A stretch of DNA of 64,000 nucleotides from Escherichia coli. Lineage in GTDB: Bacteria > Pseudomonadota > Gammaproteobacteria > Enterobacterales > Enterobacteriaceae. The notes below the pieces were generated by a model that searched no databases, was not told the origin of the DNA, and was given only the letters and a program-made list of their open reading frames with translations. A program made the translations under genes and the position numbers. How positions within the stretch are numbered: position 1 is the stretch's first letter; the number at the start of each line of letters is the position of its first letter. Of this stretch, positions 1 through 32,069 are shown piece by piece. Location of the stretch: assembly GCF_003334385.1 (NCBI RefSeq), contig NZ_QOWN01000007.1; one strand, 5' to 3'.

Positions 1-128
1 TTATCGTGAGAGTAATTCATCGGCACGTTAAATCATATCAGGCGTAATACCACAACCCTTAAGTTAGCGCTTATGGGCTTATCACCCTCTGGCACTACGA
101 TGCATCGGACCGTATCACACACCGCACA

Positions 129-2243
129 GTGAACGGCGAACCGGCAGAGCAGTGGCGGTATAACGACCACGGCTGGCTGACAGAAATCAGCCATCTCAGC
201 GAAGGCCACCGGGTGGCGGTGCATTACGGTTATAACCGTAAGGGACGTCTCACAGGCGAGCGCCAGACGGTACATCACCCGGAGACGGGGGAACTGCTCT
301 GGCAGCATGAGACGAAACACACTTACAACGAGCAGGGGCTGGCAAACCGCTTTCAGGCAGACAGCCTGCCACCGGTGGAGTGGCTAACGTATGGCAGCGG
401 TTACCTGGCGGGAATGAAACTGGGCGACACGCCGCTGGTGGAGTACACACGGGACAGACTGCACCGGGAAACGGTGCGCAGCTTCGGCAATAATGCATAT
501 GAACTGACCAGCACATACACTCACGCAGGCCGGTTACAGAATCAGCACCTGAACAGCCTGGTGTATGACCGTGACTATGGCTGGAATGACAATGGCGACC
601 TGGTGCGCATCAGCGGCCCGCGGCAGACGCGGGAATACGGCTACAGTGCCACGGGCAGGCTGGAGAGTGTGCGCACCCTCGCACCGGACCTGGATATCCG
701 CATCCCGTATGCCTCCGACCCGGCGGGAAACCGCCTGCCGGACCCGGAGCTGCACCCGGACAGTACACTCACGGCGTGGCCGGATAACCGAATCACCGAA
801 GACGCGCACTACCTGTACCGCTATGACAGGTATGGCAGGCTGACGGAGAAGACGGACCGCATCCCGACGGGTGTGATACGGACGGACGACGAGCGGACCC
901 ACCACTACCACTACGACAGCCAGCACCGGCTGGTGTTTTATACGCGGATACAGCATGAGGAGCCACTGGTCGAGAGCCGCTATCTCTACGACCCGCTGGG
1001 CCGCCGGACGGGGAAACGGGTGTGGCGTCGCGAGCGTGATCTGACAGGATGGATGTCGCTGTCGCGTAAACCGGAGGTGACGTGGTACGGATGGGACGGC
1101 GACCGGCTGACGACGGTACAGACCGACACCACGCGTATCCAGACGGTATATCAGCCGGGGAGCTTCGCGCCGCTCATCCGCATCGAGACAGAGAACGGCG
1201 AACTGGATAAAGCGCAGCGGCGCAGCCTGGTGGAGAAGTTACAGCAGGAAGGGAGTGAGGACGGTCACGGTGTGGTGTTCCCGGTGGAACTGGTGAGGAT
1301 GCTGGACAGGCTGGAGGGGGAAATCCGGGCAGACCGCGTGAGCAGTGAGAGCCGGGCGTGGCTGGCGCAGTGCGGGCTGACGGTGGAGCGGCTGGCGGCA
1401 CAGATAGAGCCGGTTTATTTACCTGAGCGAAAAGTTCACCTTTATCACTGCGACCACCGGGGACTGCCGCTGGCGCTCATCAGCGAAGACGGCAATACGA
1501 TGTGGAGCGCGGAGTATGATGAGTGGGGAAACCTGTTGAATGAGGAGAACCCGCATCACCTGTACCAGCCGTACCGCCTGCCGGGGCAGCAGTACGATGA
1601 TGAATCGGGGCTGTGCTATAACCGTAACCGGTACTACGATCCGCTGCAGGGCAGGTATATCACCCAGGATCCAATCGGGCTGAGTGGCGGGTGGAATTTA
1701 TACCAATATCCTCTCAATCCGGTTCATAAAGTGGATCCTTTGGGGTTATCAGCATGGGATGATGCAAAATCTGGTGCGTGTCATGAAGGAATTTGCCGAC
1801 TGTTTTCTGTTTTCATTGGCCCGGATAAATTCGATAGCACCGATGATGCGGCATTCGAAGCATTAAAAAAAACAAATGGACATTCAATATGCCAAGGTGT
1901 TGAACATGCAGGCTTAGTGTGTAAGGATAAAAATAATAAATATTTCTATACGCCACCTAAACAGGGAAATGTGAATACATCTTATCCTTTTGAAAGTCCA
2001 TGTCCTAATGGAACAGAAACAGTTGCTATGTACCATACACACGGTTCAGATAGTAATGGAGTGTATGGAGATGAAGTTTTTTCTCCGGCTGACAAGGAAT
2101 TATCTAAAAATAAAGCTATTTCGAGTTACCTTGGTACACCTAAAGGTTCATTCCAGAAAGTAGAACCAAATGGTGATCAGCCAATGAATAAATCTGGTTT
2201 ACCAAGTCAGTGTAGAGTACATGCAAATGGAGAAATATATTAA
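129..2243 (+). CDS. Rhs family protein, 5'-truncated fragment: YD-repeat core end, DPxGL boundary (VDPLGL at 1731-1748) and a Cys-rich C-terminal toxin domain. Frame is open from nt 63; first in-frame start is GTG at 129
   Basis: YD-repeat text ([23 protein letters not shown]), conserved PxxxxDPxGL core end, then a low-GC variable tail with 8 Cys and an HTH...SPAD motif. All three forward frames have stops within nt 1-62, so it is not contiguous with upstream coding sequence. Confidence 0.8.
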
Positions 2244-2575
2244 TGAAAGTTATGATTATATTAATGTTATCAATACTTCCATTGTTACCAAGTTTTTCTC
2301 ATGGTGAATCGGCGGAATGTTCCCTTGAAAACTCAGACAGTAAGAGTAATTATTTCGTTGGAAATAAGGAATTAGTAGGTAAATTAGCAGAAATATATGT
2401 AGAGGACCGCTATGGCAAAGATAATGCCATGCGAGAGAAACCTTATCATATTAGCGATAAAGGTAACTTTTGGCAGGTAAGTGGAAACATAGACCCTAAT
2501 GCAACGGGAGGTGTTTTTGTAATAAAAATAGATAAGGTAAACGGGAGAATCATATCATTTACTCATGGGAAATGA
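2243..2575 (+). CDS. Putative Rhs immunity protein with N-terminal signal peptide ([21 protein letters not shown])
   Basis: Small AT-rich ORF whose start overlaps the rhs stop (TAATG); hydrophobic leader; position typical of rhsI genes. No recognisable family. Confidence 0.45.
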   Translation: MKVMIILMLSILPLLPSFSHGESAECSLENSDSKSNYFVGNKELVGKLAEIYVEDRYGKDNAMREKPYHISDKGNFWQVSGNIDPNATGGVFVIKIDKVNGRIISFTHGK

Positions 2576-2593
2576 TTTTTTTGTGCACAGAAA

Positions 2594-2622
2594 TGATCAG
2601 GCCATAGCACATGTCCTGATCA
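2594..2622. terminator. Hairpin (tgatcagg ... cctgatca) flanked by T-run and A-run, between the convergent immunity gene and the 708-aa ORF
   Basis: Inverted repeat read directly from sequence. Confidence 0.4.
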
Positions 2623-2651
2623 AAAATAACCCACGTTAAACGCTGATAAAA

Positions 2652-4778
2652 TTAGTTATGCAGCATCAGACGCGATATTTTTTCCAGAAGAGATGTCTGA
2701 CTGACTTCATTATAGCGTGTGGTATCGTAAGTTAAAGTTCGCAACAATAATTCAGTTGCTGGTTGCGCCATCACATCAACCTCTTTACCGTCAAATGTTG
2801 TCGCCACCAGATTATAAACTAAGGTTGCTCTGTCCATAATCTGGTTGGGCTGGTTACTTTTAGTACAAAAAAGTAATGCTTCATTACCTCGTTTTTCAAT
2901 AAAGAGTTGTTGATACTGGCTGACAGCATGACTTTTAGGTTTTGGCGTTAAATAGTAAGGCAAACATGTTTTATCCGCTGCACCAAATTTATTAATTTTA
3001 TCATGATTATCTTCTGCTACCTGAAGAGAACAACGCTCTGCAGAACCTAATAATCTCGGAATACGAACAGTATTGTATCGCTTAATCACAACCTGATTTA
3101 TTGTATCAACAAGATAGAAATTATCATCACGCAATTTATCAATACAGTTGATATTCATCCCTGGAACATTATTACGGAAATCGTTCTCATCGGTATACAT
3201 TTTCGGCTCTGCGATGTTCATTACGCCATGGCTGAATACTACCGGCGTAGCAACGCCATAAAAATCATTCCCTCTTCTGTTTCCGGAAGAGGAACACCGA
3301 ATTGAGACAAGAATATACTCACCATCGTTAATGCTAAAACCGGTAAGTTTCTTTCTCACCAGCACAGCTTCTTTTAGCCAGAGTTCGCTGCGAATCATTT
3401 CCAACTTAGCGACAGACACAGGATTAAGAACTTTTTTAACCACCAGGGTAACAGGATCTTTTTTATTCTGCTCTATGGCTTCAATATTACATCCCTGAAA
3501 AACTCGCTGATGATTTTTTTCAAAATCAAGGATAAAATCTACTTTTAGCCTTGAATAATAATCTAACAGACCTTTTTTACCCGCTTTTGCCTCATTCAGT
3601 GCCTGCCAGGTAGAGTTTAAAAAGGTATCTTCACCAAGGGAAATGCTGGACCCATTTATTTTTTTAGACTGATTCAGTACCAGATAGTTAACATCTTTAT
3701 CAAGATCAATAAGTTCCCGAGGTGAAATTATATCTACTGCATCTAATTCTTTTTTCAGATAGTGAATAAATCGTTGGTGCGCTTCTGGTTCTTCGCCATT
3801 ATCAAGATTGTCTATAATAACTAACGGGCGCTGAAGTGTTTTGATATTGGTCGTTAAAAAGTCTAACTGACTGTGGGTTGCACAAAAAACACGTGGTGAA
3901 AAAGCGATGTCAGCCTGAGACAGTATATCACCAAGCACGTTCTGAACCAGATTTTCTGCATGATTTTTGCACCCAGAATAAGCTTTACTGGCAAAACGCA
4001 TATAGGGCATTTTCCGGTATTTTCTACCATCTACTTTCTCAAGCAACTGCAATGATTTTTTGCCCTTAATCAGAATCCGACCATAATCGCTGAGTACACC
4101 AAGCTCTTCCGCTTTAGCTCTGAAGCAGATCCCTTTCAGGGTAAAAGTGAGGTCGCCATAATCCGGGCTGTAAAAGAGATCACTTTGCAATGCATCGACG
4201 TAATAGTTTCCTCTTTTGTCTGGCTCTTCTTTTTGTACGACGGCACCCAGAAAAATTTCGCTATTATAGGCCCCATGACTCACCTCAAAATACTTCCCGG
4301 CATTATCTAAAAAATGTAGTTTCAGACGCAGTCCGAGCACAGTTTGAGCAATTTTATATTGATCAAAGCCTTTTATTTTGAGTTCATTAACCCATTGATG
4401 ATACGGGCGAGCATCAGGTGACAGAAACATCACAAGATAGCTGTTTCCTTTTCTTAACGTTTGATACTGGAACTCCCTGTTATTCTTCGTTCCCAATTTT
4501 AACGATAATATATTTTGAATTTCTCTGTGCAATTCAATAAAAAAATCATCCCATTTCATGGAGTATTCTTTTACCTTGGTGATACAGATAGCATCAATTC
4601 CCCAACCATTTGTCGAGGGTAATTGTAAAAGTTTTTCCAACATTACATCTGCAGTATCATGGATATCAAAGAGCTGTGTTCGTGCTTTAGGTGCATAATC
4701 TGGAGGCTGAAGCCCCCATTCGGCAGCCATCACAACATCCGTTTCGTTATGCTGTTGACTTTCAGTTACATCAGTCAT
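2652..4778 (-). CDS. Hypothetical protein, 708 aa, second gene of the AT-rich two-gene operon; function unknown
   Basis: Long uninterrupted ORF; ATG overlaps the upstream gene's stop (ATGACTGA) with AGGAG 8 nt upstream; no motif I can assign by eye. Confidence 0.6.
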   Translation of the reverse strand: MTDVTESQQHNETDVVMAAEWGLQPPDYAPKARTQLFDIHDTADVMLEKLLQLPSTNGWGIDAICITKVKEYSMKWDDFFIELHREIQNILSLKLGTKNNREFQYQTLRKGNSYLVMFLSPDARPYHQWVNELKIKGFDQYKIAQTVLGLRLKLHFLDNAGKYFEVSHGAYNSEIFLGAVVQKEEPDKRGNYYVDALQSDLFYSPDYGDLTFTLKGICFRAKAEELGVLSDYGRILIKGKKSLQLLEKVDGRKYRKMPYMRFASKAYSGCKNHAENLVQNVLGDILSQADIAFSPRVFCATHSQLDFLTTNIKTLQRPLVIIDNLDNGEEPEAHQRFIHYLKKELDAVDIISPRELIDLDKDVNYLVLNQSKKINGSSISLGEDTFLNSTWQALNEAKAGKKGLLDYYSRLKVDFILDFEKNHQRVFQGCNIEAIEQNKKDPVTLVVKKVLNPVSVAKLEMIRSELWLKEAVLVRKKLTGFSINDGEYILVSIRCSSSGNRRGNDFYGVATPVVFSHGVMNIAEPKMYTDENDFRNNVPGMNINCIDKLRDDNFYLVDTINQVVIKRYNTVRIPRLLGSAERCSLQVAEDNHDKINKFGAADKTCLPYYLTPKPKSHAVSQYQQLFIEKRGNEALLFCTKSNQPNQIMDRATLVYNLVATTFDGKEVDVMAQPATELLLRTLTYDTTRYNEVSQTSLLEKISRLMLHN

Positions 4779-7700
4779 AATTCGCTCCTAAAAGATTAAG
4801 TAAGTATTGATTTACTCTTAATTCTGATTTTATTTTTGCATCATAAGGATTTTTGCCATTATCTTTTTCATAAGATGAAATATTTTTAAAAAGGTTATAA
4901 TAACAGACGCCCTTATGGTTAGAATGTTCGGCACGAATGTTGAGGCTGTTTAAAGCATATCGAGTATTAAGATAAACAACGTCAACACCATCAAACTGTG
5001 TTTTTGCTGTAATGATTTTCTGCAACTCACTGACTTTCCCCAATGAGTTATTATGCATTTTTTTCGCTAATTGTCGGTTATTTCCTTGCATTCGCCAGTT
5101 TTTTACATCGATTGCAACAATCCGGTTCTTGTTAATGCAATACACATCAAACAACTCATAACAAGAGCTATCCAGATAGTACGATAGCTCTTGTGGTGGG
5201 ATCAGCGTAATATTCATTTCCTGGAGAATCAGGTGTAATTGCCATTCACCAATATTGCCAATCAAAAGTGGCAACAATGAAGGAATGGGGATGTATTGTT
5301 GTAAAGGCGTGGCATCTAATCCCAGAATCTTCGCAAAAATACGCTGTTCAGTTCCGGATGACTCTTCAGCCATGGCTTCATGATATTGGGGTAAACAATA
5401 TTCCGGTTTGTATGGATTTGCTCCAGCTGAAATATCTGTTAATCCATAACCATCTAAGGTTTTAGCCAGTATTACATTTTCCCAATCGGCAGTACGCTCC
5501 AGATAAAAATGGCTTACACAGTCGCTAAGGTAAGCATTTTTCTTAATAATCGCGTTGCGTTTAAGACGTTTTATATATGACTGAGGATCGGTAAAACTGT
5601 CCCGGTGACGTAATGCTTCATTTAACTCAATTGCATCTCGATCACCTTGTCTTGCCAGTGGCAAAATTTTATTTTTCAGTTCAGCTTCAAAGTCGCTATA
5701 CATATCTATTGCTTTAGCAACTTTATTTTCAAATTCGCTACGTTGACTATCGGAAGAAAAGCTGGCTTTTAATAAATCCTCTTTTGAGCGTTTGAACCAT
5801 AGATGGTTATGCAGACTCAGGGAAGCAAGTAACGATTGTGCATTTGGATGACGATCCAAATCTCGAAAAACACACAATGCATTATGATGAACACCAGAAG
5901 GTAAACGAATAATCCCATTCATTTGGGCATCACGCCGTTCTGTACGGCCAATAGTTTGCATAGCAATTTTATGAAGCTCGACGGTATGTTCAGTATTCAG
6001 CAATTGGGCCGCATCAGAATCAACTAGATCCGTATCGAAATCACCAACCTGACGAGGTACACTTCCATGAGCATAATGCTTGAGTAAGGTAATATAATTT
6101 TCCAGCGTGTTTCGCGATGGAGTTGCATTAATCTGACTCCAGTAGCTACCGCAGACCATTGCTAATTCATCAAAGTCGATTTGTTCTAAATCTGCTTCTA
6201 CAGGTTCTGACGGTGCCGGATAAGTGACATAATAATTAAGCCCTGTCCCGGCCCCCTGGAAATGGGAAACCATGCATATTGCTAAATTTTGGTGATCGAT
6301 TTGCAGATAGTCTCTTACCGGATCTTCCCGGTTGAGTTTTGAATCAAACATGACGACACGCAATCTATGCCGCTCAGCAAAAGGGGTGATTTCAAATACT
6401 CGAGGTAAATCATTCCCCCGACGTGTTTCATTGTCAAGAATGGTAACCCCACGATAGGGATTTGCACTTAACTTATTGGCACGAAGAAAATTCCCGATAA
6501 TCGCAAAAAAACGGCTACTGATCCCGATACATAAAATGTGCCGACCAGTATAAGCAGCAAGTAACATACATTGTAACTGGCGATGAAACTCTCGTTTATG
6601 ATAGCGATTAAACTGAACTGCTTTAGAGTATGGTTCGAGCATTTTGAGCCAGAAACGATATGCATTCCTGAACTCAGACTCCTCGTTTTGTGGTAAAAAC
6701 TCTAGTACCTGATCGTCAAATACCTCCAACGCTACAGATCGATGAAGGTTTCTGTTGTCACGGATCGTCGACAAGGGCGAGGCAGAATCAACATCCCGCT
6801 GCCTGATGCGATAGTTCAACTCACGAGCGTATTTATCCAGAAACGGGCGGCTGTATTGCCCATTATACGTTGTAGGAAATCCTGCTGTAGCAGACAGCAA
6901 AATAATAGTATTACGCGTATTATAAAGCACACGTAATAATGCTATTTCAGGTAACTCCTTAATTAACTCCATCCGAAATTTGAGTAATACCCAACCCCTC
7001 AGTTGTTCAGCCTCAATTCTTACCTGTTCACGTGGCGAAAGGGAAAACAATGTCTTGGGTTGAAAATAGGTAAAAAAATCATCTATCAACTGTTCTTTCT
7101 GAGGCTCACTGGAAGATAAATGAACTATATCTCCTTTAATACTTTGGGCTTTACGAATGAAAACTGATAATGGGTTATTCTGATTTGCCATCTCCTGCTG
7201 TGCCAGCAAATCGCAGACATGTTTGGGTGTTTCCAACCGGGCAGAGGCTAATAATAGAGCAGTCAGTGTCTGATACAGTTCATATAAGTTAAATTCATCT
7301 GGAACTTTTTTGTCATCTTCAGAAACATAGACTTCAGTGTATGAATGACGCCCGTGACTACGTAAATGAATACGACGAAGGTCTGACTCACGGTAAAATC
7401 GCTGAATCTGATAACTGAAAATATTACCAATTAACGCGATAACCTGCTCAGCATTACGACTATCGACGACGATATCAAGCAAACTATTTCTAAAGAGTCT
7501 GGTCAGCTTCTTAAGATCGAAATCAGGTCGTAAATCACATTGTAATAAAGCTTTGTTGATCTCATCGACATAATTTTTCAGAGGGGTATACCCTGGTGCT
7601 CTTTCATCTGAAGAACATTCATCCACATATTCCAGTACACGATGTAAAATTGCCAGTAACGAAGGAAGTTGCTGATCGTCGTTCATTAATGTCTGGCAAA

Positions 7701-8775
7701 CATTCTGCTGGAAGATACGGTAGGCTTCGTGCTCTTCGTCCAGAACTAATGTGAAACGAATATCACGTTGTGCAAAAGGTGAGTCTTCGTCGGTTATCCA
7801 ATATTGCTCTTTTAAGCTCTCAATTCGCTGTGGATTAGTCTGGTTAGCAATCTCGCCTAACGGATTCACTTTGAGGCCTTTTTTCTGGCCCAGAACGTGG
7901 TCCAGTTGTTGTGAACTCCGGTGATAGTCGCCTTCTTTATCGCGTTTCAGTAACAGCACACTGCCATCGAACTTTTTCGTTGTAGCCAGCAGGATACATC
8001 GGCGATACAGTGCAATCTGAAATGGGAAAAGATGTTTAACCATTTCCGTAGCCAGTGCATATCGAGGATTAGTCGCTTCCCCATCAAGTAAAACCGCCAG
8101 ATCCTGATTCAAGGCATTAAGCATCGCCACAGTCGCTTCCTGTAAGCGACCTGCTAAATGAAAACTATTGAGACGTAACTCATCCTCCAGACGTTTTTGT
8201 TCAAACGTTGCCCCTACTTTAATCTCTGTTTCCAGACGTACTTCCAAACTATTACGCGCATCAACTTCAGCTTTCAGGCGTTGAAAAATAAGCTGAATTT
8301 CACCCGACATCAATTCGTTGGCTTGCTTGATCCAGCGACGATAACGTTCCCGGTTTGTGGGTGTTTTCCCTTCAGGAGATTTGACCCATGACGTAAAACC
8401 AAGATCTGCGATATCCCCTTGCGAAAGATAAGGTAACAATTCAATCTTCTTATCTCGGGCGCGAGCGATGAGTTGTTCCGGGATGTCAATTTGTGATTTC
8501 AAGGGTGTGATAAACACCAGATTGCGATGACTATTGCCAGGGTTGATTGCTGGATTTACGCTTTCGATGTATTGAGCGAAAACGTTATAGCTTTTACCGC
8601 TCGCCGTACCATCCTGGGATTGAATCAGTAGTGGTGTATCTGCTTCGGTAAAAGCGTAAAACGTACCGGCCTGTTTTCTTGCTGCGGTAATGGCTTCTCT
8701 GACACTTTGTGGTAATGGAAGATGTCGAATGTTGTGATTTAGTTCGGATTGCATGTCTTCAATTCCTTCTGGCAC
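4771..8775 (-). CDS. Large hypothetical protein, 1334 aa: P-loop GTASGKS (res 56-62), Walker B-like LVLDEE (res 343-348), C-terminal PD-(D/E)xK-like motif (D1210 ... D1223-V-K1225). Start is GTG at 8775 or ATG at 8754
   Basis: 4 kb ORF in a low-GC region; motifs verified by back-translation of nt 8590-8610, 7729-7749 and 5101-5148. Confidence 0.6.
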   Translation of the reverse strand: MPEGIEDMQSELNHNIRHLPLPQSVREAITAARKQAGTFYAFTEADTPLLIQSQDGTASGKSYNVFAQYIESVNPAINPGNSHRNLVFITPLKSQIDIPEQLIARARDKKIELLPYLSQGDIADLGFTSWVKSPEGKTPTNRERYRRWIKQANELMSGEIQLIFQRLKAEVDARNSLEVRLETEIKVGATFEQKRLEDELRLNSFHLAGRLQEATVAMLNALNQDLAVLLDGEATNPRYALATEMVKHLFPFQIALYRRCILLATTKKFDGSVLLLKRDKEGDYHRSSQQLDHVLGQKKGLKVNPLGEIANQTNPQRIESLKEQYWITDEDSPFAQRDIRFTLVLDEEHEAYRIFQQNVCQTLMNDDQQLPSLLAILHRVLEYVDECSSDERAPGYTPLKNYVDEINKALLQCDLRPDFDLKKLTRLFRNSLLDIVVDSRNAEQVIALIGNIFSYQIQRFYRESDLRRIHLRSHGRHSYTEVYVSEDDKKVPDEFNLYELYQTLTALLLASARLETPKHVCDLLAQQEMANQNNPLSVFIRKAQSIKGDIVHLSSSEPQKEQLIDDFFTYFQPKTLFSLSPREQVRIEAEQLRGWVLLKFRMELIKELPEIALLRVLYNTRNTIILLSATAGFPTTYNGQYSRPFLDKYARELNYRIRQRDVDSASPLSTIRDNRNLHRSVALEVFDDQVLEFLPQNEESEFRNAYRFWLKMLEPYSKAVQFNRYHKREFHRQLQCMLLAAYTGRHILCIGISSRFFAIIGNFLRANKLSANPYRGVTILDNETRRGNDLPRVFEITPFAERHRLRVVMFDSKLNREDPVRDYLQIDHQNLAICMVSHFQGAGTGLNYYVTYPAPSEPVEADLEQIDFDELAMVCGSYWSQINATPSRNTLENYITLLKHYAHGSVPRQVGDFDTDLVDSDAAQLLNTEHTVELHKIAMQTIGRTERRDAQMNGIIRLPSGVHHNALCVFRDLDRHPNAQSLLASLSLHNHLWFKRSKEDLLKASFSSDSQRSEFENKVAKAIDMYSDFEAELKNKILPLARQGDRDAIELNEALRHRDSFTDPQSYIKRLKRNAIIKKNAYLSDCVSHFYLERTADWENVILAKTLDGYGLTDISAGANPYKPEYCLPQYHEAMAEESSGTEQRIFAKILGLDATPLQQYIPIPSLLPLLIGNIGEWQLHLILQEMNITLIPPQELSYYLDSSCYELFDVYCINKNRIVAIDVKNWRMQGNNRQLAKKMHNNSLGKVSELQKIITAKTQFDGVDVVYLNTRYALNSLNIRAEHSNHKGVCYYNLFKNISSYEKDNGKNPYDAKIKSELRVNQYLLNLLGANYD

Positions 8776-9219
8776 AACTGCATTTTGAAAATCGGGTATG
8801 GACGTATTAACGCACCAAACACAGCGTTAAAGGGCTATGTGAAATACTCGCTGAGACGGCTTGTATTCGAAAGGTGGTACGGGCACTTATTATGCTACGC
8901 CCAATCGCAACCGTTATGGTAGTTAAGTGCGTATTTTACCTGACATTATGCAAACGTCAGAAACTTAATCCCATATTTTTATATGGTTAAAAATTCATGT
9001 CTGCTGCTGATTGATTTGCTTCGAATTGGTTCATATCTCACCGCTAAGCTACGTCTGGATATGCGGGCAAATATGGTATAGATGATATGCTGGTTCATTG
9101 TACTTGGCTTGCATGACGGAAGGAAAAGTCAGTAGTAAAAAGGTGGTCATTCTGGAGGTCTTGACAAACAGGGAATTCAGGTTTAGCTTACTTATTAGCC
9201 AGTTACTGGCAAAGGCGAT

Positions 9220-9236
9220 CCCAGTCAGAGGAGCCA
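9220..9236 (+). repeat. Direct copy of the tRNA-Asn 3' end (cCCAGTCAGAGGAGCCA) without the rest of the tRNA; att-like island boundary scar
   Basis: 16-17 nt identical to the 3' acceptor/T-arm end of E. coli tRNA-Asn as I recall it; no full tRNA nearby. Confidence 0.5.
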
Positions 9237-9241
9237 AATTC

Positions 9242-9270
9242 AAAAAAGCCTGCTTTCTAGCAGGCTTTTT
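9242..9270. terminator. Bidirectional rho-independent terminator (A-run, gcctgc/gcaggc stem, T-run) downstream of the minus-strand PTS operon
   Basis: Perfect 6-bp stem with flanking A6/T5 runs. Confidence 0.55.
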
Positions 9271-9294
9271 GCTTTCTAATTACCAACTCTTTGG

Positions 9295-9855
9295 TCATTC
9301 CAGATCAGCGTGTCGGGTAAACATTGTGGCACTGCTTTCACCCAGTTCAGACATCAACTCCAGAACAATTGCATCATAAGTAATAAAGCAGAGTTGCTCA
9401 AAAGCTGAGCCCATTGGTTGTGCGAAAGCGCCTGCAACACGACTGTTATCGTCTTTCACACTTCCTGGTAGTACCAACACAGATTGAGCTAATTTACCGA
9501 TCGTCGAATCTGCTTTCATAGTTACCAGAGCTACGTTTACTCCGCTATCAACTGCTTTTTGTGCCAGACTTTTCAAACTGGTAGTTTCACCACTGCCTGA
9601 CCCAATAATTAATAGATCTCCAGGTTGGGTATGCGGGGATGATATTTCTCCCACAACGCTTACTGAAAAACCTAAATGCAGCAAGCGATTAGCAAAAGCG
9701 CGAATAGCAATGCCACTGCGACCAGCTCCCTGCAAAAAAATATGCCGGGCATTTCTGATTTGCGAAATAAACTGTGCAGCCTGAGCATCGTCAATCTTCA
9801 GCGCATTACTCTCTAATTCATGCAGAATATTAATAGTATTTTCCTGAACACTCAT
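9295..9855 (-). CDS. SIS-domain sugar-phosphate isomerase (6-phospho-3-hexuloisomerase-like)
   Basis: 186-aa translation has SIS-fold hallmarks (GAGRSG, IGSGSGET). Confidence 0.65.
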   Translation of the reverse strand: MSVQENTINILHELESNALKIDDAQAAQFISQIRNARHIFLQGAGRSGIAIRAFANRLLHLGFSVSVVGEISSPHTQPGDLLIIGSGSGETTSLKSLAQKAVDSGVNVALVTMKADSTIGKLAQSVLVLPGSVKDDNSRVAGAFAQPMGSAFEQLCFITYDAIVLELMSELGESSATMFTRHADLE

Positions 9856-9870
9856 TTTTTCTCTCCCTTT

Positions 9871-10623
9871 TTAAGCAATAGTCCGGCCACCATCCATTAA
9901 AATGGTTTGTCCCTGAATATAAGAGTTATCTTTATCTGCCAAAAATATTGCCAGGTTAGCCACATCATCGATAGTCCCCAGACGACGGACGGGTATTTTT
10001 TCCAGGACAGCGTCTAAATCGGCTTGTGTTGGATAGTTGACCCGCATCATCTCTCCGGTGTCTATTAAGCGGGGAGCAATCGCATTGACATTGACGCCTT
10101 TTGGTCCTAACTCTTTTGCCAGCCCACGAATCAATCCTTCGCCTCCCGCTTTACTGGCAGGATAACTGACACCGCCCCCAGTCCCCGAAAGCGCTGATCC
10201 CGATGAGATATAAACAATAGATCCCTTATTTGTCAGGAAATCATCATAAAACGCCTTAACGGTATTAAATAATCCTGATAAGTTAATTGCGATAGTCTTA
10301 TTCCATTCCTCAAAAGAAATATTGTTAACTTTATTGGCAAATGCCACACCGGCATTTAATATCAACACATCAATGCGACCAAAGGTAGCAAATACCTTTT
10401 CCCGAACATCCACTAATGCCTGTGGATCGGAGACATCTGTTTTAATAAACAACGATTTAACATCGCCAAAAGTTAACTCTGCTGCAGTGGCCTTGCCGTT
10501 CTCTTCGTTATAGTCAACAATAACAGTATGTGCACCACGATCAGCAAATTGTTTAGCTATCCCTTTGCCAATACCGTGAGCACCTCCGGTAACTAAAACC
10601 ACTTTACCTGCAAAATTACTCAT
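9871..10623 (-). CDS. Short-chain dehydrogenase/reductase (SDR) family oxidoreductase
   Basis: N-terminal TGGAHGIGKG Rossmann motif and YxxxK-type catalytic region. Confidence 0.75.
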   Translation of the reverse strand: MSNFAGKVVLVTGGAHGIGKGIAKQFADRGAHTVIVDYNEENGKATAAELTFGDVKSLFIKTDVSDPQALVDVREKVFATFGRIDVLILNAGVAFANKVNNISFEEWNKTIAINLSGLFNTVKAFYDDFLTNKGSIVYISSGSALSGTGGGVSYPASKAGGEGLIRGLAKELGPKGVNVNAIAPRLIDTGEMMRVNYPTQADLDAVLEKIPVRRLGTIDDVANLAIFLADKDNSYIQGQTILMDGGRTIA

Positions 10624-10720
10624 TACTTTTCTCCATTAAAGACATTTTTTAGCTGAGGTTTTCCTCCCGATATGAAATCGAAAACCTCACTTAACTGGAT
10701 GTGAAATTTTTAGATTGTGA

Positions 10721-11365
10721 TCACTGAACAGCGATTTTTAATGCCTGATAACTTTCACGAGGCTGTTTGTTAAATAAGGCACCACCAACAACAATAAGGT
10801 CAGCCCCTGCTTCTTTAACTTGTTTTACATTATCAAGATTAACGCCACCATCCACTTCAATTTGAATATCTCTGGCAGATATCATTTTTTTGGTATTACG
10901 GATTTTCTCCAGACTTTTATGAATAAATGTCTGGCCTGGTTGCCCTGGGTTAATTGTCATTAACAATATATAATCAATATCATCTAATAAATATTCGATT
11001 ACAGATTCAGGTGTCCCAGGATTAAGCACAACACCTGCTTTGCGACCCGCCTTTTTGATTTTTTGAATAATATAATGTACATGTGGCGTCGATTCATAAT
11101 GTACAGAAATCATCTCCGCCCCGGTATTGATTACATCATCAATATGTCGCTCAGGATTTGCCAGCATCATGTGTACGTCAAAGATCATCGAACTGGCTTT
11201 TTTCATTGCTGCTATTTGATTTGGGCCAAAGGCAATATTACTGACATAAGTGCCATCCATTAAATCAACGTGCAATATTTCGGTTTGTTCCTCTTCCAGA
11301 AAATGAATTTCATCTTTCAGGCGTAAAATATCCGCGCCAAATATAGAAGGTAATATTTTTGCCAT
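10721..11365 (-). CDS. Ribulose-phosphate 3-epimerase family protein (SgcE/AlsE-like hexulose/pentulose-phosphate 3-epimerase)
   Basis: 214-aa TIM-barrel epimerase-like sequence (HVDLMDG ... DGG). Confidence 0.7.
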   Translation of the reverse strand: MAKILPSIFGADILRLKDEIHFLEEEQTEILHVDLMDGTYVSNIAFGPNQIAAMKKASSMIFDVHMMLANPERHIDDVINTGAEMISVHYESTPHVHYIIQKIKKAGRKAGVVLNPGTPESVIEYLLDDIDYILLMTINPGQPGQTFIHKSLEKIRNTKKMISARDIQIEVDGGVNLDNVKQVKEAGADLIVVGGALFNKQPRESYQALKIAVQ

Positions 11366-11387
11366 GTTAAAACTCCAGAATATTAAA

Positions 11388-12641
11388 TCAATGTAATACG
11401 GTACTCAACCAATAGGTTAAAATTTCCCACGGGCCGGTTAATACAAAATCAGTACCTTGTCCTTGCAAGCCTACACCGGCTCCAGCTAAAAATTGCGTTG
11501 CCCCTGGTGCGACATAACCGCCTAAATACATCACTACAACGCAGAATAACAAGGTCGAGATAATCGAACGAATCACGTTACCGTTGCTCGCCATTACGGT
11601 CATGGTGGTCATATAAATAATTGACATCAATACGCCAATTGGGAAGATCTTAATATCAGGTAATACCAGAGCACATAGCATGGTTAAAGGAATGGTAATG
11701 ACTGTCACGGTGACCGTCGCCGGATCCCCCAACGCTAGTGCACAATCCATACCGATGTTTAATTCAGCATCTTTACCCATCTGTTTTTGCATGATTTCTT
11801 TGGCACTTTTCCCTATTGGGTTAAGACCTTCCATCAGCACACCGACCACTTTAGGTAACAATACCATTACGCCAGCAACCCCCATCGCCATGGGAACAAT
11901 TGTGGTAATTGCCTGTTTCGTTAAAACTCCGAGTAATGCGCCAACGATAACACCGATAATTGCAGGTTCACCAAAGACACCCAGGCGTTTTTGCACACTG
12001 TTTAAGTCAACATCTAACTTATTTAACCCTGGGATGTAATCAATGATTTTATTTACTACCCAGGCGAACGGTAGAGTCCAGCCGATATGAATCATCGTGG
12101 TACAGGTCGTTCCCTCGAGTCCATAATATTTTTGCCATCTGGGCGCAATCAAATCGCCAATAAACAGAGCCGCAATACTCAAAGCCACCGCGACAGAGAA
12201 GCCGATGATAAAACTGTCGAACACAAAATATGCCAGAGCACCCGGAACTAAAAAATGCATATAGTTCCAGATATCAACATTTAACGTTTTGGTTAATTTC
12301 AGACGCACCAGAATCAGGTTAAGTACGATGCCAACTGGTATCACCAATGCGGCGAAAGGTGCCACCCATGCAGCAGCACCGACTGCAGGCCAACCAATAT
12401 CTGCTACCGTAAAGCCACTACCTACTTTTGAGTAATACTCAATAGCTGGCTGTAATGAACTATTTAATAAACCAACAACCAGACCTAAACCAATAAAACC
12501 AATACCGACTGTGATGCCCGACTTGATCGCGGCACCGGGTTTCATTCTGAACACCAGACCTAAAATAAATATCACCAGCGGCAGTATTGCAGTTGCCCCC
12601 ATTCCGGTGATTGTTTCCATTAAATTTTTCAACATTTCCAT
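11388..12641 (-). CDS. PTS EIIC component, galactitol (GatC/SgcC) family
   Basis: 417-aa polytopic membrane protein with GatC-like sequence. Confidence 0.75.
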   Translation of the reverse strand: MEMLKNLMETITGMGATAILPLVIFILGLVFRMKPGAAIKSGITVGIGFIGLGLVVGLLNSSLQPAIEYYSKVGSGFTVADIGWPAVGAAAWVAPFAALVIPVGIVLNLILVRLKLTKTLNVDIWNYMHFLVPGALAYFVFDSFIIGFSVAVALSIAALFIGDLIAPRWQKYYGLEGTTCTTMIHIGWTLPFAWVVNKIIDYIPGLNKLDVDLNSVQKRLGVFGEPAIIGVIVGALLGVLTKQAITTIVPMAMGVAGVMVLLPKVVGVLMEGLNPIGKSAKEIMQKQMGKDAELNIGMDCALALGDPATVTVTVITIPLTMLCALVLPDIKIFPIGVLMSIIYMTTMTVMASNGNVIRSIISTLLFCVVVMYLGGYVAPGATQFLAGAGVGLQGQGTDFVLTGPWEILTYWLSTVLH

Positions 12642-12661
12642 TTTTATTATTCCTGTCAGGT

Positions 12662-12955
12662 TTAGCTATTTGCTAATTCAGTTAATAACTCTCCTAATTT
12701 CTTGCGTAATGCTCCTTCATTAATGCCCGTTACAAAACCTGCAACGCTCATATGTGGTTTCCCAATATCACCTTTATAGTTATTAGTTGTGAGTACAATA
12801 TCTGCATGAGCCATCTCAGAAGAAAGTTCAGCCATACTGCATTTGTTGATTTTAAATGCCGTAATACCATATTCAGCACATACTGACTTCACTTCATCAG
12901 CAGCAAGCGTAGAGGTAGCGACACCGCTACCACAAGCAACAAGAATATTAATCAT
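12662..12955 (-). CDS. PTS EIIB component, galactitol family (active-site Cys in VACGSG)
   Basis: 97-aa GatB-like sequence. Confidence 0.7.
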   Translation of the reverse strand: MINILVACGSGVATSTLAADEVKSVCAEYGITAFKINKCSMAELSSEMAHADIVLTTNNYKGDIGKPHMSVAGFVTGINEGALRKKLGELLTELANS

Positions 12956-12973
12956 AATAAACTCCAGTTTTTA

Positions 12974-13417
12974 CTATTGGATTATTTTGGATACAAAAAG
13001 TGCTTTTGCATCATCGACGGGAAGTGTCAGTAAGTTTTGGTAAAATTCTTCATTTTGGAGATGGTTAAATAATGGCTTTAACAATCGAAGCTGGTCAGCA
13101 GGATCCGTAACAATAAGATTAACGACGAGTCTGACCCACAATATTCCATCTTCATCAGCCCTGTTCACAGGTATTGCGTCTGGCAGACGGATGATATAAA
13201 TAGCAGGTTGATTCGCATGTTCACTATCACAGTGTGGTATAGCGATAGAATAACCTTCCAGTTCTATTCCTGTCGGATATTCCGCTTCGCGTTTACGCAT
13301 AGCATTGAGCCAGCTCTCTTTCACCGTATTCGTTGTACGGTGCGTGTTAAAAATATGCTCAAGCACGGCATCGTAATTCTGCAGTCCCGCACCATCGGCA
13401 ACACTGATCGATATCAT
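12974..13417 (-). CDS. PTS EIIA component (mannitol/fructose-type EIIA, SgcA-like)
   Basis: 147-aa EIIA-like sequence with GYSIAIPH motif. Confidence 0.7.
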   Translation of the reverse strand: MISISVADGAGLQNYDAVLEHIFNTHRTTNTVKESWLNAMRKREAEYPTGIELEGYSIAIPHCDSEHANQPAIYIIRLPDAIPVNRADEDGILWVRLVVNLIVTDPADQLRLLKPLFNHLQNEEFYQNLLTLPVDDAKALFVSKIIQ

Positions 13418-13744
13418 ATCCTTTCCCCCTCACCCAAAAATGCTCACATGAGCATTGAGCAATATTCATATGAGCAGTTATAGCACAACGATCCTGTGGA
13501 TAAATAACGAGATCTGAGAAATTAAATCCAGATCACAAAAAAGCACATAATGGCGTCAGTATTTATGCTCATATGAGCAAATCGTGATTTCTTCGCAAAA
13601 AAGTAACTGAAACTGGCAATAGGCAGAGGATGTATTCAATAGAGGGCGCTAAGCAAGCATCGCCATGGATGCTCACTTGATAATTGGGAAATGATTACAT
13701 TTGGCAAAGCTGATTCGAAGGGAGAAGGCGTGTCGTAGTGAGTT

Positions 13745-14500
13745 CTAACAGGTTATTACTGACGTGTATTTTGCGACTTCGGCAATCCCCTCTTTGTCGG
13801 CATGATCGTTGGTTATAAGTGCGGTGATCTCCGACCAGTCGCAGATCTTAAATAAACTGCTGCGCTCAAACTTGGTGTAATCACCGAGGATATATTTTTT
13901 GTCTGAGTGCGAAATTATCGTACGATCCAAAAACGCATCAGAAGAAGAAGGCGTCGATGGACCAGTCATGTTACTAAAGCCGTCGGTTCCAATAAAACAG
14001 AGATCAACATGTATATCGTTGATCATAGATACCGCCCACCCCCCAAACACTGAGGAACTCTTTCTACGCAGTTCGCCGCCAAAGAGAAAAACCTGGTTGT
14101 CAGATTCAATCAACACACTGGCAACGGGGAGCGAATCTGTGAAGATTTTAAACCCAGACTTCATACATAACAGGTTAGCCAGCTCAAAAGTGGTACTGCC
14201 CGTACCGATAATCATCGAACTATTAGGCGGAATGAAATCAAGCGCTTTACGAGCTATCGCCTTCTTATAAGAGTTATTTTCTTTTTCCCTGACCTGAAAG
14301 GGATGCTCTATAGCCCTTTGCTTTAAAGTCGCCCCACCATGGCTTTTGATCAGCAGCCCTTTTTGTTCAAGATGGGTCAAATCTTTCCTGATGGTCTCAT
14401 ACGTTACTTCATACTTTCGTGCAAGATCACTGACATAGACCGTACCTGCCGACATTAAGTCTTCAAGTATTAACTTTCGCCTTTCATCAACCAGATACAT
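13745..14500 (-). CDS. DeoR-family transcriptional regulator (GatR/SgcR-like)
   Basis: N-terminal DeoR HTH and C-terminal sugar-phosphate-binding domain. Confidence 0.75.
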   Translation of the reverse strand: MYLVDERRKLILEDLMSAGTVYVSDLARKYEVTYETIRKDLTHLEQKGLLIKSHGGATLKQRAIEHPFQVREKENNSYKKAIARKALDFIPPNSSMIIGTGSTTFELANLLCMKSGFKIFTDSLPVASVLIESDNQVFLFGGELRRKSSSVFGGWAVSMINDIHVDLCFIGTDGFSNMTGPSTPSSSDAFLDRTIISHSDKKYILGDYTKFERSSLFKICDWSEITALITNDHADKEGIAEVAKYTSVITC

Positions 14501-14692
14501 CCTTCCTCCTGAAATCTATTACCCATCTTAGAAAACGCCAAGCATAGCACAGATGATACAAACAAAAACAAACACTAACAGTGGAAAGTACAAATAAACC
14601 CAATAAAGACAATAGTTCAAAAACCATATATACGATTGATAATAAATGAGTTTTTATTATTCATTACAACGCCACTGTACAATCCCAATTTG

Positions 14693-14797
14693 TCTCAATT
14701 GGCTTATTTTATTTTTTATTTGTTTTTATTGGTTTTTAATTTCATAAAAATCAATTAGTTATAAATTTTGTGATTCAGATCTCAATTGGAAACCAAT
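14693..14797. promoter_or_regulatory. AT-rich divergent control region with a direct 10-mer repeat TCTCAATTGG (14693-14702 and 14780-14789) and palindrome ATTGG-AAA-CCAAT (14785-14797); candidate operators
   Basis: Repeats read from sequence in the gap between the DeoR regulator and the divergent PTS cassette. Confidence 0.3.
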
Positions 14798-14848
14798 ATT
14801 TACCAACAGCATACTTGGCTTTAGTTACTTAACGACAGGCAAAATGAA

Positions 14849-15385
14849 ATGAAAACAAAGATTGCTATCGCAAGCGATGATGTAGGTTTTGCACGTAAAG
14901 AGGAGATCAAAAAATACCTCATAGAAGAGAAAAACATGGAGATCGTGTACGATCCCGTCACATGTAAGGAACAAGGTGTCAATAACTTCGCGCGTCTGGC
15001 CGACGAAATGGCAGGCATTATTCAACGCGATGAGTGCCGTCTGGGAATTTACATTTGTGGGACTGGCATTGGCTTTACTTGTCAGATCAACAAACACTGG
15101 GGCATAAGAGCCGTTGCGGTTACTAACCCCTACTCCGCAAAGCGGGCGCGACTCAGCAATAACGCACAAGTTATTGGACTGGGTTGCCGGGTCAACGATC
15201 TCGAATACAGCAAAATGATTGTCGATGCATGGTTGGATAACCCATTCGACTTCACCACCGCCAGAGAAAATTCTAAAAAGAACTTGCTAGAAGCTGAACG
15301 TAACGATAATGCATTGCTGGTTAAGCCCGCTGATGTACGCTGGAATATGGGTTTCCGACCAGATGATGAAAAATCTGAGGGTTAA
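14849..15385 (+). CDS. RpiB/LacAB-family sugar-phosphate isomerase
   Basis: 178-aa translation resembles the ribose-5-P isomerase B / galactose-6-P isomerase family. Confidence 0.6.
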   Translation: MKTKIAIASDDVGFARKEEIKKYLIEEKNMEIVYDPVTCKEQGVNNFARLADEMAGIIQRDECRLGIYICGTGIGFTCQINKHWGIRAVAVTNPYSAKRARLSNNAQVIGLGCRVNDLEYSKMIVDAWLDNPFDFTTARENSKKNLLEAERNDNALLVKPADVRWNMGFRPDDEKSEG

Positions 15386-15388
15386 TGT

Positions 15389-16759
15389 ATGGAACTGATC
15401 ACGCAATTTATAAACGATCTGGGAAATTTTATATTTATCCCGGTCATCTTCCTGATACTGATGAAGATACTTGGCCGTCCTCTTTCAGAATGTATCTCGT
15501 CTGCCATCAAAGTCGGCATTGGTTTCATTGCGCTAACCATGACCATCAAACTGATGCTGGAAAAAATGCAACCGGCAGTCACTGGATTAGCAGAAGCAAC
15601 AGGTTCCTCGCTCAGTGCCATCGATGTTGGTGGCGCAGCAACTGCGGTTATGGGATTTGGCTCCAGCATGGGCGCTATCATTATTCCCCTCTGTGTTGCG
15701 GTAAATATTGCAATGCTGGTCGCCCGTCTGACTGACTGTGTTAACGTTGATGTTTTCAACCTTCATCAAAATGCGTCAATGGGGGCAATTGTTGGCGTCT
15801 ATTCTGGTAGCTTCCTGTATGGCGCATTGACCGCCGCGCTATTCCATGTATGGGCGCTGATCGCTGCCGATCTTGGTGCTAAAAATAACGAAAAATTCTT
15901 TAACCTGCCAAAAGGTGTTGCGATCTGTCACCCGGTTGCCAATACCTACTTACTTTTCGCTTATCCATTCAACTGGATTTATGATCGCATCCCAGGCTTC
16001 CGTAATCTGAATGTGACCGCCGAAACTATTCAAAAACGGTTTGGCATTCTCGGCGATCCAACTATGGTTGGTTTTATTATTGGTATTTTGTTGGGCTTTT
16101 GTGGTTATGGCTGGAAATCCCCATACCACACCATAATCGCCAGCCTACAGTTAGGGATGTATCTTGCTGCAGTCATGCTTCTGTTGCCACGTATGACCTC
16201 TATCATGATGGAAGGGCTTGTTCCGCTTTCCAACGTAGCACGCAAAAAACTGGTCAAACGTTTCCCGGATCGTCAAATCACTGTTGGTATGGACACTGCT
16301 CTGATTGTGGGCCATCCATCAGTTATCGCCCCTGCATTATTGCTGATCCCGGTGATTGTGATCCTCGCCGTGATCTTGCCCGGCAACCGCGTTATGCCAC
16401 TGGGTGATCTCTCTCAGTTTGTGTTTTTCATTGCCTGCATGGTACCTGTTTTCAATGGCAACATTATTCGCACCTGGGTGACCTCGATCATTTTGTTTGG
16501 TGGTGGTTTGTATATTGCATCATGGATGGCACCGGCTACCAACGAAGTCTTCCAGAAGTTTGGTACAAACCCGGATGCCAGCGTGATGTACTCTTCGCTT
16601 AACCCGTCAGCGAATCCATTTACTGGTCTGTTTGCCGCCCTGAGCCATGTTGGAATCATTGGCTATGTGATGGCAGGTATCCTTTTGTTATCTATTGGAT
16701 ACTTAATTAAACAAAAATCACGTCGCCAGATTGAAACGGATTTGGAAAAAGCGCTTTAA
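15389..16759 (+). CDS. PTS EIIC component, galactitol family (second cassette)
   Basis: 456-aa polytopic membrane protein paralogous to the 11388-12641 product. Confidence 0.75.
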   Translation: MELITQFINDLGNFIFIPVIFLILMKILGRPLSECISSAIKVGIGFIALTMTIKLMLEKMQPAVTGLAEATGSSLSAIDVGGAATAVMGFGSSMGAIIIPLCVAVNIAMLVARLTDCVNVDVFNLHQNASMGAIVGVYSGSFLYGALTAALFHVWALIAADLGAKNNEKFFNLPKGVAICHPVANTYLLFAYPFNWIYDRIPGFRNLNVTAETIQKRFGILGDPTMVGFIIGILLGFCGYGWKSPYHTIIASLQLGMYLAAVMLLLPRMTSIMMEGLVPLSNVARKKLVKRFPDRQITVGMDTALIVGHPSVIAPALLLIPVIVILAVILPGNRVMPLGDLSQFVFFIACMVPVFNGNIIRTWVTSIILFGGGLYIASWMAPATNEVFQKFGTNPDASVMYSSLNPSANPFTGLFAALSHVGIIGYVMAGILLLSIGYLIKQKSRRQIETDLEKAL

Positions 16760-16782
16760 ATCTTTTACAGAGGAATAATCAA

Positions 16783-17067
16783 ATGAAAAAAATCTTAGTA
16801 GCTTGCGGAAACGGAATTGCCTCATCTTCCATCATGGTCTCTGTACTGCAGGACTTCCTGAAAGAAGAGAAAATTGAAGCGCAAGTCGATAAATCTTCGT
16901 TAATGGCATGCACCAGCGATACCTTCAACAGCTATGACCTGGTGGTTTCATCAACCAAACTCGATAACCCGGCCATTACTACTCGTGTCATCGTTGGCGC
17001 TGGATTACTGACTGGTCTGGGCGAAGATGAGATTTTCGCTGCAGTTAAAGAAGAGATGTTGAAATAA
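16783..17067 (+). CDS. PTS EIIB component (VACGNG active site)
   Basis: 94-aa GatB-like sequence. Confidence 0.7.
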   Translation: MKKILVACGNGIASSSIMVSVLQDFLKEEKIEAQVDKSSLMACTSDTFNSYDLVVSSTKLDNPAITTRVIVGAGLLTGLGEDEIFAAVKEEMLK

Positions 17068-17077
17068 CAGGTGTGCA

Positions 17078-17536
17078 ATGAAATTTGAAATTCTGGTGAA
17101 TGATGTTGATAACAGCATCAGTGACTATCAAACGGCGATCACCTTTGCTGGTACGCAATTATTGGAAAAAGGCTACATCACTGCAGAATACATTGACGCC
17201 TGCCTGGAACGTGAAAAAAGCTATCCGACAGGACTAATGATGGCAAACGGTCAGGGTATCGCCATTCCCCATGCCGATTACACGCTGGTAAATGTAAACA
17301 GTATCAGTATTGTTCGTTTCGCCAATGATGTCACTTTCGGACAGATGGAAGATGCTGATTTAACAGTTGATTGTAGCATTATGTTTAACCTGGCATTTGC
17401 CACCAGTGATCAACATATGTCGATATTGCGTCGTTTATTCACACTGTTTCAGGATAACGCCTTTGTTGAGACTTGCCGCAATTTACCTGCAACGCGCGTG
17501 GCTAAATATGTAGAGGATACGCTCGCAGCGTCCTGA
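17078..17536 (+). CDS. PTS EIIA component (GIAIPHAD active-site His)
   Basis: 152-aa EIIA-like sequence. Confidence 0.7.
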   Translation: MKFEILVNDVDNSISDYQTAITFAGTQLLEKGYITAEYIDACLEREKSYPTGLMMANGQGIAIPHADYTLVNVNSISIVRFANDVTFGQMEDADLTVDCSIMFNLAFATSDQHMSILRRLFTLFQDNAFVETCRNLPATRVAKYVEDTLAAS

Positions 17537-17587
17537 AATTAAAAGGGCAGAATCAGCGGTACTGCCCTTTCTTCACTGATATGGCTA

Positions 17588-18565
17588 TTAATCCAGAAGT
17601 TTAATGGCCGTATCAAAATCAGTAATTAAGACATTTAAAAGTCCAGATTTCAGCGAAGCAAGAATGCCTTCATATTTTTCTTCTCCTCCAGCGACACCAA
17701 TCACTTTTTTGGCTTTTTGTAGTTGATCCGTCGAAATGCCAAATCCCAGACGTTCAATAGGACTATGAAGAATCTTCCCTTCCCTGCTGACCAACGAGAT
17801 ACACACATCCGCAGCGATATCTTGTTGAAACAAAGCTTCGCACCAGGTATCCGGAAATATTTTACACAAGCTTGAAGAACCTGATTTCCAGTCACCTATC
17901 CCGGTGATAACCACATCCAACTGTGAGTAATATTGCTGTGTATCTAATACCGCAGGATCACCTGCCAGTCTGGCAGCAAGCTCTTCGTCATCGACCCACA
18001 TCGGCACGTACATTGGGTGCGCTTTTCCCTGCGAAATGGCAGCGATCTTATGAATAAGATCTATTGGCCCCTGACTAAACTCGATCCCCGGATGTACGCC
18101 AGATAACTGCACAACGTCTAAAGGAGGCAACTTGCTCAACTTACTGACCGTGCTTGATAATACACGTCCCCAGGCGATCCCCACTTTCATATCTTCATGA
18201 AGAGATTGCATAAGATATTCAGCGGTGACTTCACCCAATTTGTGATTGAGTTCTTCTTGCGTCGTCCAGGATTCAGCAACTGAAAGAACAATTGCATCTT
18301 CCAGATGAAATTTTTTCCGTAGATTATTAGCGATTTCTTCATCCATCGCTTGCTGCTTAGGGAAGATAAACCTCACGTATTCCTGTTCGATCGCCTCATC
18401 GATCAATCTGGCAACTTTAAAGCGGGAAACGCCAAGCTCCTCTGCAATCTCAATCTTGGTTTTCATATCCGCAAAATAACGTCTGACCACGAGCGAGTAT
18501 ATGTAGCGAGGATCGTAACCCTGCCAGCGGCTGTTTTTTTTCTGTTTCGTCATTCTCTTTTCCAT
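17588..18565 (-). CDS. SorC/DeoR-type sugar-binding transcriptional regulator
   Basis: 325-aa protein with N-terminal HTH and SorC-like effector domain. Confidence 0.65.
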   Translation of the reverse strand: MEKRMTKQKKNSRWQGYDPRYIYSLVVRRYFADMKTKIEIAEELGVSRFKVARLIDEAIEQEYVRFIFPKQQAMDEEIANNLRKKFHLEDAIVLSVAESWTTQEELNHKLGEVTAEYLMQSLHEDMKVGIAWGRVLSSTVSKLSKLPPLDVVQLSGVHPGIEFSQGPIDLIHKIAAISQGKAHPMYVPMWVDDEELAARLAGDPAVLDTQQYYSQLDVVITGIGDWKSGSSSLCKIFPDTWCEALFQQDIAADVCISLVSREGKILHSPIERLGFGISTDQLQKAKKVIGVAGGEEKYEGILASLKSGLLNVLITDFDTAIKLLD

Positions 18566-31751: not shown

Positions 31752-31770
31752 TCCACAGGAGAAACGCAGT

Positions 31771-32046: not shown

Positions 32047-32069
32047 CCCCATTTGCTAAGGAGCACAGC

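Follow-up and report, generated by a model that had tools for sequence, protein, structure and literature searches.

If the 3' end of a tRNA gene stands alone in a genome, is it the scar of an integrated island, and to which of its neighbours does it belong? This question is raised by a short sequence at positions 9220-9236 of a 64,000-nt stretch of Escherichia coli DNA (contig NZ_QOWN01000007.1 of assembly GCF_003334385.1). This whole stretch, at its full length, is called the window here. An earlier note on the window had read the sequence as a partial copy of tRNA-Asn left behind by an island, located between a block with rhs and two further genes and a PTS block. We analysed the piece itself, both ends of the presumed island, its empty site, its relatives and its cargo.

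The orphan tRNA-Asn end and its repeat

The 17-mer CCCAGTCAGAGGAGCCA (9220-9236, + strand) occurs only once in the window, even if three mismatches are allowed (0.05 occurrences expected). Its equation with the 3' end of tRNA-Asn held for 16 of the 17 bases. Positions 9221-9236 (CCAGTCAGAGGAGCCA) are the last 16 nt of E. coli tRNA-Asn including the CCA, and base 9220 is a mismatch (C in the window, T in tRNA-Asn). That no complete tRNA surrounds the piece was borne out by ARAGORN, which found none in the whole 64-kb window. An Rfam scan of 8700-9400 returned no family above threshold, only sub-threshold, terminator-driven matches, and no tRNA even at E <= 10. With only 16 matching nt and no recognised cloverleaf, the orphan is classed neither as a tRNA gene nor as a tRNA pseudogene. 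The start of the large gene, which lies to the left, had been placed about 450 bp away; the distance is 445 bp from GTG 8775 or 466 bp from ATG 8754.

The match to the asnV locus extends 7 nt beyond the CCA (AATTCAA). At 9221-9243 (+ strand) the window thus contains an exact 23-bp direct repeat of the asnV end (CCAGTCAGAGGAGCCAAATTCAA), composed of CCAGTCAGAGGAGCCA, the 16-nt tRNA-Asn end, and of AATTCAA, 7 nt of downstream flank. Within these 23 bp, a 17-bp core (CCAGTCAGAGGAGCCAA) is present at both island ends. The two copies in sister islands at asnW agree over 20 bp and differ beyond. Given this divergence point, 23 bp overstates the true core; the repeat reaches that length at asnV because the gene's own flank happens to match the island's AATTCAA. 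We detected no extra or degenerate att copies in the window or in the island of strain ATCC 8739 (23-mer with up to 5 mismatches; adjoining island arm by short-word BLAST). In the loci read, each copy of the core repeat lay at an asn tRNA gene or an island right end; none lay at unrelated positions, which the earlier note had named as a finding against a scar.

An intact asnV gene and an integrase gene at the left end

The left island end was read in relatives that are 99.3-99.9% identical to the window and not in the source strain. The identity is 99.3% for ATCC 8739 and 99.925% for 2017.03.02CC; the latter figure is over 25.3 kb and takes in the IS421 junction at window 1-74. On the left, both strains share the order yeeN, asnW, yeeO, asnU, cbl, nac, asnV. 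After asnV follow a tyrosine integrase pseudogene, a second integrase-domain gene and small ORFs, and then rhs, an immunity gene, two large genes annotated as 'hypothetical', the orphan sequence and hxlB. This shared gene order identifies the intact tRNA gene as asnV, downstream of nac, one of four asn tRNA genes in this E. coli region. From the intact asnV to the orphan we measured 16,792 bp in ATCC 8739 and 18,131 bp in 2017.03.02CC, which has an extra IS421. The intact asn-tRNA gene and the integrase that the earlier note had expected to the left were thus found in the closest genomes, as asnV and an adjacent P4-type integrase gene, and the repeat is exactly duplicated at the other end, by the 23-bp copy at asnV.

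The integrase gene lies 161 bp after asnV, comprises 420 codons and is of the P4 type (PHROG integrase, E 1.6e-60). Codon 177 is a premature stop in both ATCC 8739 and 2017.03.02CC. The second integrase-domain protein gene of the ATCC 8739 island (294 aa, locus positions 7041-7925) is encoded on the opposite strand.

The empty site and the displaced terminator

We searched complete E. coli genomes with an empty-site query, a synthetic join of the 400 nt ending at the asnV CCA and window positions 9237-9636. Among the matches listed, the query aligned end-to-end at 97.9-99.5%, and at least 80% of it was covered in 143 of the 5,426 genomes. The occupied junction was found in about 37-41 genomes. 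In island-free genomes asnV is joined straight to the terminator and hxlB, as in ET474, where hxlB directly follows asnV; the empty site that the earlier note had proposed to define therefore exists. Aligning K-12 and ET474 with the two left junctions and the window placed the insertion exactly between the repeat copies. In the same alignment, the DNA to the right of the orphan is the native asnV flank with its terminator, and the DNA to the right of asnV in occupied genomes is island DNA.

A bidirectional terminator had been noted beside the orphan. The hairpin is real (9243-9270, + strand, -18 kcal/mol, z -5.5), with an A-run on its left and a T-run on its right, so that it is bidirectional in form, and it also lies at the 3' end of the convergent hxlB. 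Since K-12 and ET474 have this sequence right after asnV, it is asnV's own terminator, displaced by the insertion, and not a feature of the island. The first gene outside the island is hxlB (9295-9855, - strand), which abuts asnV in the empty-site genomes.

The repeat, the intact asnV, the integrase gene and the empty site all favour the integration scar of an asn-tRNA island that had been proposed. Positions 9221-9243 are almost certainly attR, the right junction of a 17-18 kb island integrated in the asnV tRNA-Asn gene. Relying on what is known of P4 and HPI integrases, we infer how this junction would have formed. The P4-type tyrosine integrase, encoded at the left end beside asnV, would have recombined two sites, the 3' end of asnV (attB) and an island attP in which AATTCAA follows a duplicate of the final 16-17 nt of tRNA-Asn. 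A crossover inside the shared core would have left asnV intact at the left junction, with island DNA now following it. The original downstream DNA, that is the asnV terminator and hxlB, would have been pushed 16.8-18.1 kb away, behind a second core copy. The orphan would be this second copy, with the island arm on its left and native chromosome on its right.

Integration is an event of the past, the integrase now being a pseudogene, and the catalysis is proposed by analogy. The stop at codon 177 likewise makes the island probably immobile. Other parts have decayed as well: rhs is interrupted by IS421 in the window and, in ATCC 8739, by an internal stop, and a segment of ~200 bp with a small HTH gene, present in SJC33 and WW2, is deleted in ATCC 8739 (locus ~8818). 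The lost HTH gene might encode an excision factor. Judged from this decay in the integrase, the HTH gene and rhs, the island is probably fixed now unless helped in trans, and the integrase pseudogene predicts that no circular excised form arises without such help.

A conserved right arm is shared by sister islands

Directly inside attR lies a conserved, attP-derived right arm (9134-9220, + strand). It is 81-83% identical to the right ends of three islands with different cargo, those of SJC33 and WW2 at asnW and of ESDR8 at asnT. All four islands end in the same ~85-nt arm, AAAGGTGGTCA.TCTGG.GGTCTTGACAA...TTTAGCTT...GGCGATC, then CCAGTCAGAGGAGCCAA, and after arm and core each continues with the native flank of the asn tRNA used. 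About 68 further genomes have only ~78 nt of the arm in common with the window.

Read by eye, the arm contains a perfect TTGACA (9161-9166), a 17-nt spacer and a weak -10-like TAGCTT (9184-9189), facing attR; a promoter scan did not call this element. In the pks island, integration puts the integrase gene under the tRNA promoter in place of its own (PMC8209727), and the outward-facing TTGACA fits such a replacement. By analogy with HPI and pks, the element may be the integrase promoter of the excised form.

The integrase is more widespread than the arm. About 480 genomes have integrase copies of at least 90% DNA identity, far more than carry this island's right end, and ~2,100 genomes have a copy at 72-73% DNA identity. 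Where inspected, the 72-73% copies were the HPI integrase next to asnT and ybtS, with 69% protein identity to the island integrase. We examined three sister islands from the group with at least 90% identity (SJC33, ESDR8 and WW2). SJC33 has a frameshifted integrase at asnW and an Rhs module and is devoid of the large gene pair. In ESDR8, an intact integrase allele (413 of 421 positions matching) stands at asnT with T6SS remnants. WW2 has the integrase at asnW, Rhs fragments and, at its right end, a module with NACHT, DUF6375 and radical-SAM genes. The island family thus uses asnT, asnW or asnV, and combines a common integrase and the ~85-nt right arm with varied cargo.

In WW2, a truncated internal arm with ~12 nt of the att core was observed between the Rhs and the NACHT/DUF6375/radical-SAM modules (locus positions 31146-31260). 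It suggests that islands of this family have added cargo in tandem at their att site.

Relation to published asn-tRNA islands

Islands of this type are well described. Paauw et al. 2010 reported the same 17-bp sequence as the attO of asn-tRNA islands in Enterobacter hormaechei (PMC2801613, Table 1), and the left flank of repeat no. 3 of HPI-ICEEh1 in that paper, agttactggcaaaggcgatc, is identical to window positions 9201-9220. The HPI of Yersinia and E. coli (and the HPI-ICE elements ICEEc1 and HPI-ICEEh1) integrates in the same way at the 3' end of asn tRNA genes, with a tRNA-adjacent P4-type integrase. It shares the 17-bp repeat CCAGTCAGAGGAGCCAA with the asnV island, and the 20-nt flank at the right end is identical to that of HPI-ICEEh1. 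The HPI integrase has ~73% DNA and 69% protein identity to the island integrase, which differs in being a pseudogene. The asnV island carries Rhs and ApsAB-like genes, not yersiniabactin or conjugation genes. The right repeat is kept in the asnV island but deleted in the E. coli HPI (PMC8209727).

The same paper on the pks island describes 17-bp repeats, P4-type integrases and the interchangeable use of asnU, asnV and asnW (PMC8209727). The pks (colibactin) island, found at asnW, asnU or asnV, thus has the same type of integrative module, a P4-type integrase with 17-bp repeats. It differs in cargo and probably also in integrase lineage.

Hochhauser et al. 2023 catalogue hotspots at which defence islands integrate in E. 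coli. The erfK-nac interval with its tRNA-Asn is no. 13 in this list, with an insertion in 64 of 939 genomes, and asnU, asnW and asnT are hotspots 14-16 (PMC10121019, S1 Table for hotspot 13). Hotspot 13 (erfK/ldtA-nac) is the same interval as that of the asnV island, although the att structure is absent from the main text of that paper. A literature search for rhs with asnW, or for the RefSeq protein accessions, found nothing relevant. The scar is an ordinary attR: its asn-tRNA island occupies a catalogued hotspot and carries published cargo. Such a scar is already known in kind, and the result leaves the knowledge of tRNA-targeted integration unchanged.

Island cargo

The cargo in the window has a GC content of 0.36-0.41, versus 0.51 in adjacent core genes. 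It begins with an Rhs module. Positions 1-74 are the end of a copy of IS421 (IS4 family) that splits rhs; the same junction is present in 2017.03.02CC, and ATCC 8739 has no IS there. The 3' part of rhs follows at 75-2243 (+ strand), with the Rhs core, the core-associated domain and a DUF4329-type tip (NCBIfam RHS_core and Rhs_assc_core). It adjoins the NTF2-fold immunity gene of the module (2243-2575, + strand), as annotated by RefSeq in an identical region.

The two large genes lie on the opposite strand. Nearest to attR is a gene for a predicted helicase-nuclease, which we call apsA-like (4771-8754, - strand, 1327 aa if read from ATG 8754, 1334 aa in the longest ORF, from GTG 8775). The start of its Argonaute-like partner gene (apsB-like, 2652-4778, - strand, 708 aa) overlaps the end of apsA. 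Neither large protein had a significant match in PADLOC-DB v2.0.0, NCBIfam, PHROGs, Pfam-A (three segments) or the PDB (single-sequence and profile searches), and the sole hint from sequence searches was NERD at E 0.7. Homologues are rare, with 16 clusters for the large protein and 7 for the partner, and come from Citrobacter, Vibrio cholerae, Massilia, Pseudomonas and others. The two genes stay paired, the stop of one overlapping the start of the other, and the partner lies downstream in Vibrio, Citrobacter and Massilia. The SF2 motifs GTxxGKS, TPxKxQ, DEEH, SAT and QxxGRxER are invariant in the large protein across 16 homologues, and its C-terminus has a conserved PD-(D/E)xK-like pattern (GE...FD...IDxK).

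Structure prediction with AlphaFold gave a pLDDT of 76.9 for residues 1-1200 of the large protein and of 72.7 for the partner. Against the PDB, Foldseek ranked DdmD at the top for the large protein (E 2.7e-18), followed by DinG and XPD. For the partner it ranked DdmE at the top (E 3.4e-11), followed by the Argonautes TtAgo and hAGO2; a flexible protein of several domains is expected to give TM-scores as low as the 0.33-0.37 obtained. The supplement of the ApsAB paper prints ApsA and ApsB of the E. coli ST10 strain CNR81D10 (PMC11096173). These printed sequences (384 aa each) are 100% identical to the window ORFs, and the ApsA start corresponds to ATG 8754. The earlier note had called the operon novel, a claim that falls: given this identity to the printed residues, it is the anti-plasmid system already published as the ApsAB-like system of CNR81D10. 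By sequence identity and predicted fold, the operon beside the scar is taken to be this ApsAB-like helicase-nuclease and Argonaute-like system, matching CNR81D10 ApsA/ApsB in sequence and DdmD/DdmE in predicted fold, and hence related to DdmDE. The CNR81D10 operon is 28/25% identical to the ST38 prototype ApsA/ApsB and is reported to destabilise a ColE1 plasmid (PMC11096173, Fig. 8c). The system is missed by current PADLOC, Pfam, NCBIfam and PHROGs models, and is identified via structure comparison or the supplement of the paper.

Of 5,426 complete E. coli genomes, ~46 have the ApsAB-like operon at 99% identity or more, and in each of these it is chromosomal. The island of the ST38 prototype is located at a tRNA-Leu gene (PMC11096173), whereas that of the window operon is located at asnV. 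No tRNA was detected near the homologous modules of Vibrio, Citrobacter and Massilia within the DNA read. In a Citrobacter locus (locus positions 36-17306), an apsA-like homologue of 62% identity adjoins a T6SS cluster, and its partner gene is interrupted by an IS. The same locus contains further defence-type genes, encoding an OLD-like ATPase/TOPRIM protein, AbiEii, TerB, and BrxC/D-like proteins with a DEAD helicase.

Alternative readings of the scar

Two readings would deny that the orphan closes the island on its left. It could be a chance match, or the remnant of a decayed duplicate tRNA-Asn gene without any relation to integration; with four asn tRNA genes in the region, duplication and decay are conceivable. 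However, the chance expectation stated above is low even with three mismatches, the sequence to the left of the 16 nt is conserved island arm with no likeness to a tRNA body, and the match runs on into the asnV-specific downstream flank and terminator. Because the arm is conserved and the empty site precise, we treat this reading as excluded, its residual probability being negligible. Nearly as improbable is that the orphan marks the left end of an inserted PTS/sugar block (9291-18750) rather than closing the rhs/ApsAB block on the right. This sugar block, too, is accessory, since K-12 is devoid of 9291-18750 and has the asnV terminator joined almost directly to ldtA, and its GC content is low (0.425). 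But intact asnV abuts the terminator and hxlB in the 143 genomes without the island, so that the repeat copy belongs with the left block. The integrase, too, is on the left side and adjoins asnV, and the arm left of the orphan recurs in islands with unrelated right flanks. On the ldtA side there is no core copy, even with up to 5 mismatches. Lacking an att copy at its far end and abutting asnV in the empty-site genomes, the PTS block does not include the orphan.

A third reading accepts the scar as attR and divides the DNA behind it. Two elements may have arrived in tandem at asnV, an integrase-Rhs island and an integrase-less ApsAB module; the att site at their junction would have been lost, and the orphan would be the attR of the second arrival. 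Consistent with this, SJC33 has an integrase-Rhs island without ApsAB, WW2 has, between its Rhs and NACHT/radical-SAM modules, the truncated internal arm with the initial ~12 nt of the core, and integrase-less modules bounded by the 17-bp repeat are known from Enterobacter hormaechei (PMC2801613). Yet window positions 1-9100 and the ATCC 8739 island contain no internal copy of core or arm, and the immunity gene and the end of apsB are just 76 nt apart. We consider two arrivals improbable, and prefer a single island with attR at 9221-9243. More generally, integrase-less modules with defence genes may be captured one after another at the attR end of asn-tRNA islands, the resident integrase acting in trans, and the ApsAB-like operon may have been acquired so, with the inner att erased. 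This proposal is speculative and we hold it to be rather doubtful. If it is true, the attR-proximal slot would be a predictable place for unknown defence systems.

Neighbouring accessory regions

That the scar separates the rhs/two-gene block from the PTS block was upheld, with the refinement that the rhs block is the island and the PTS block lies outside this island. With the island boundaries fixed, the rhs and ApsAB-like genes can be regarded as horizontally acquired cargo and the PTS block as a separate accessory region. This sugar block (9291-18750, 9.5 kb) comprises hxlB, an SDR gene, rpe, two PTS IIABC sets, and DeoR and sugar-binding regulators. At its position K-12 has 34 unrelated nt, which include a different 3' end of ldtA. 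Since there is no att repeat at the ldtA side, the indel of 9291-18750 arose by another route.

Further to the right, window positions 22280-39936 are missing in ATCC 8739, where a EutP/PduV gene fragment alone remains at the junction. This is probably the pdu region, because its start in the closest relative has a cobalamin riboswitch, pocR and pduF.
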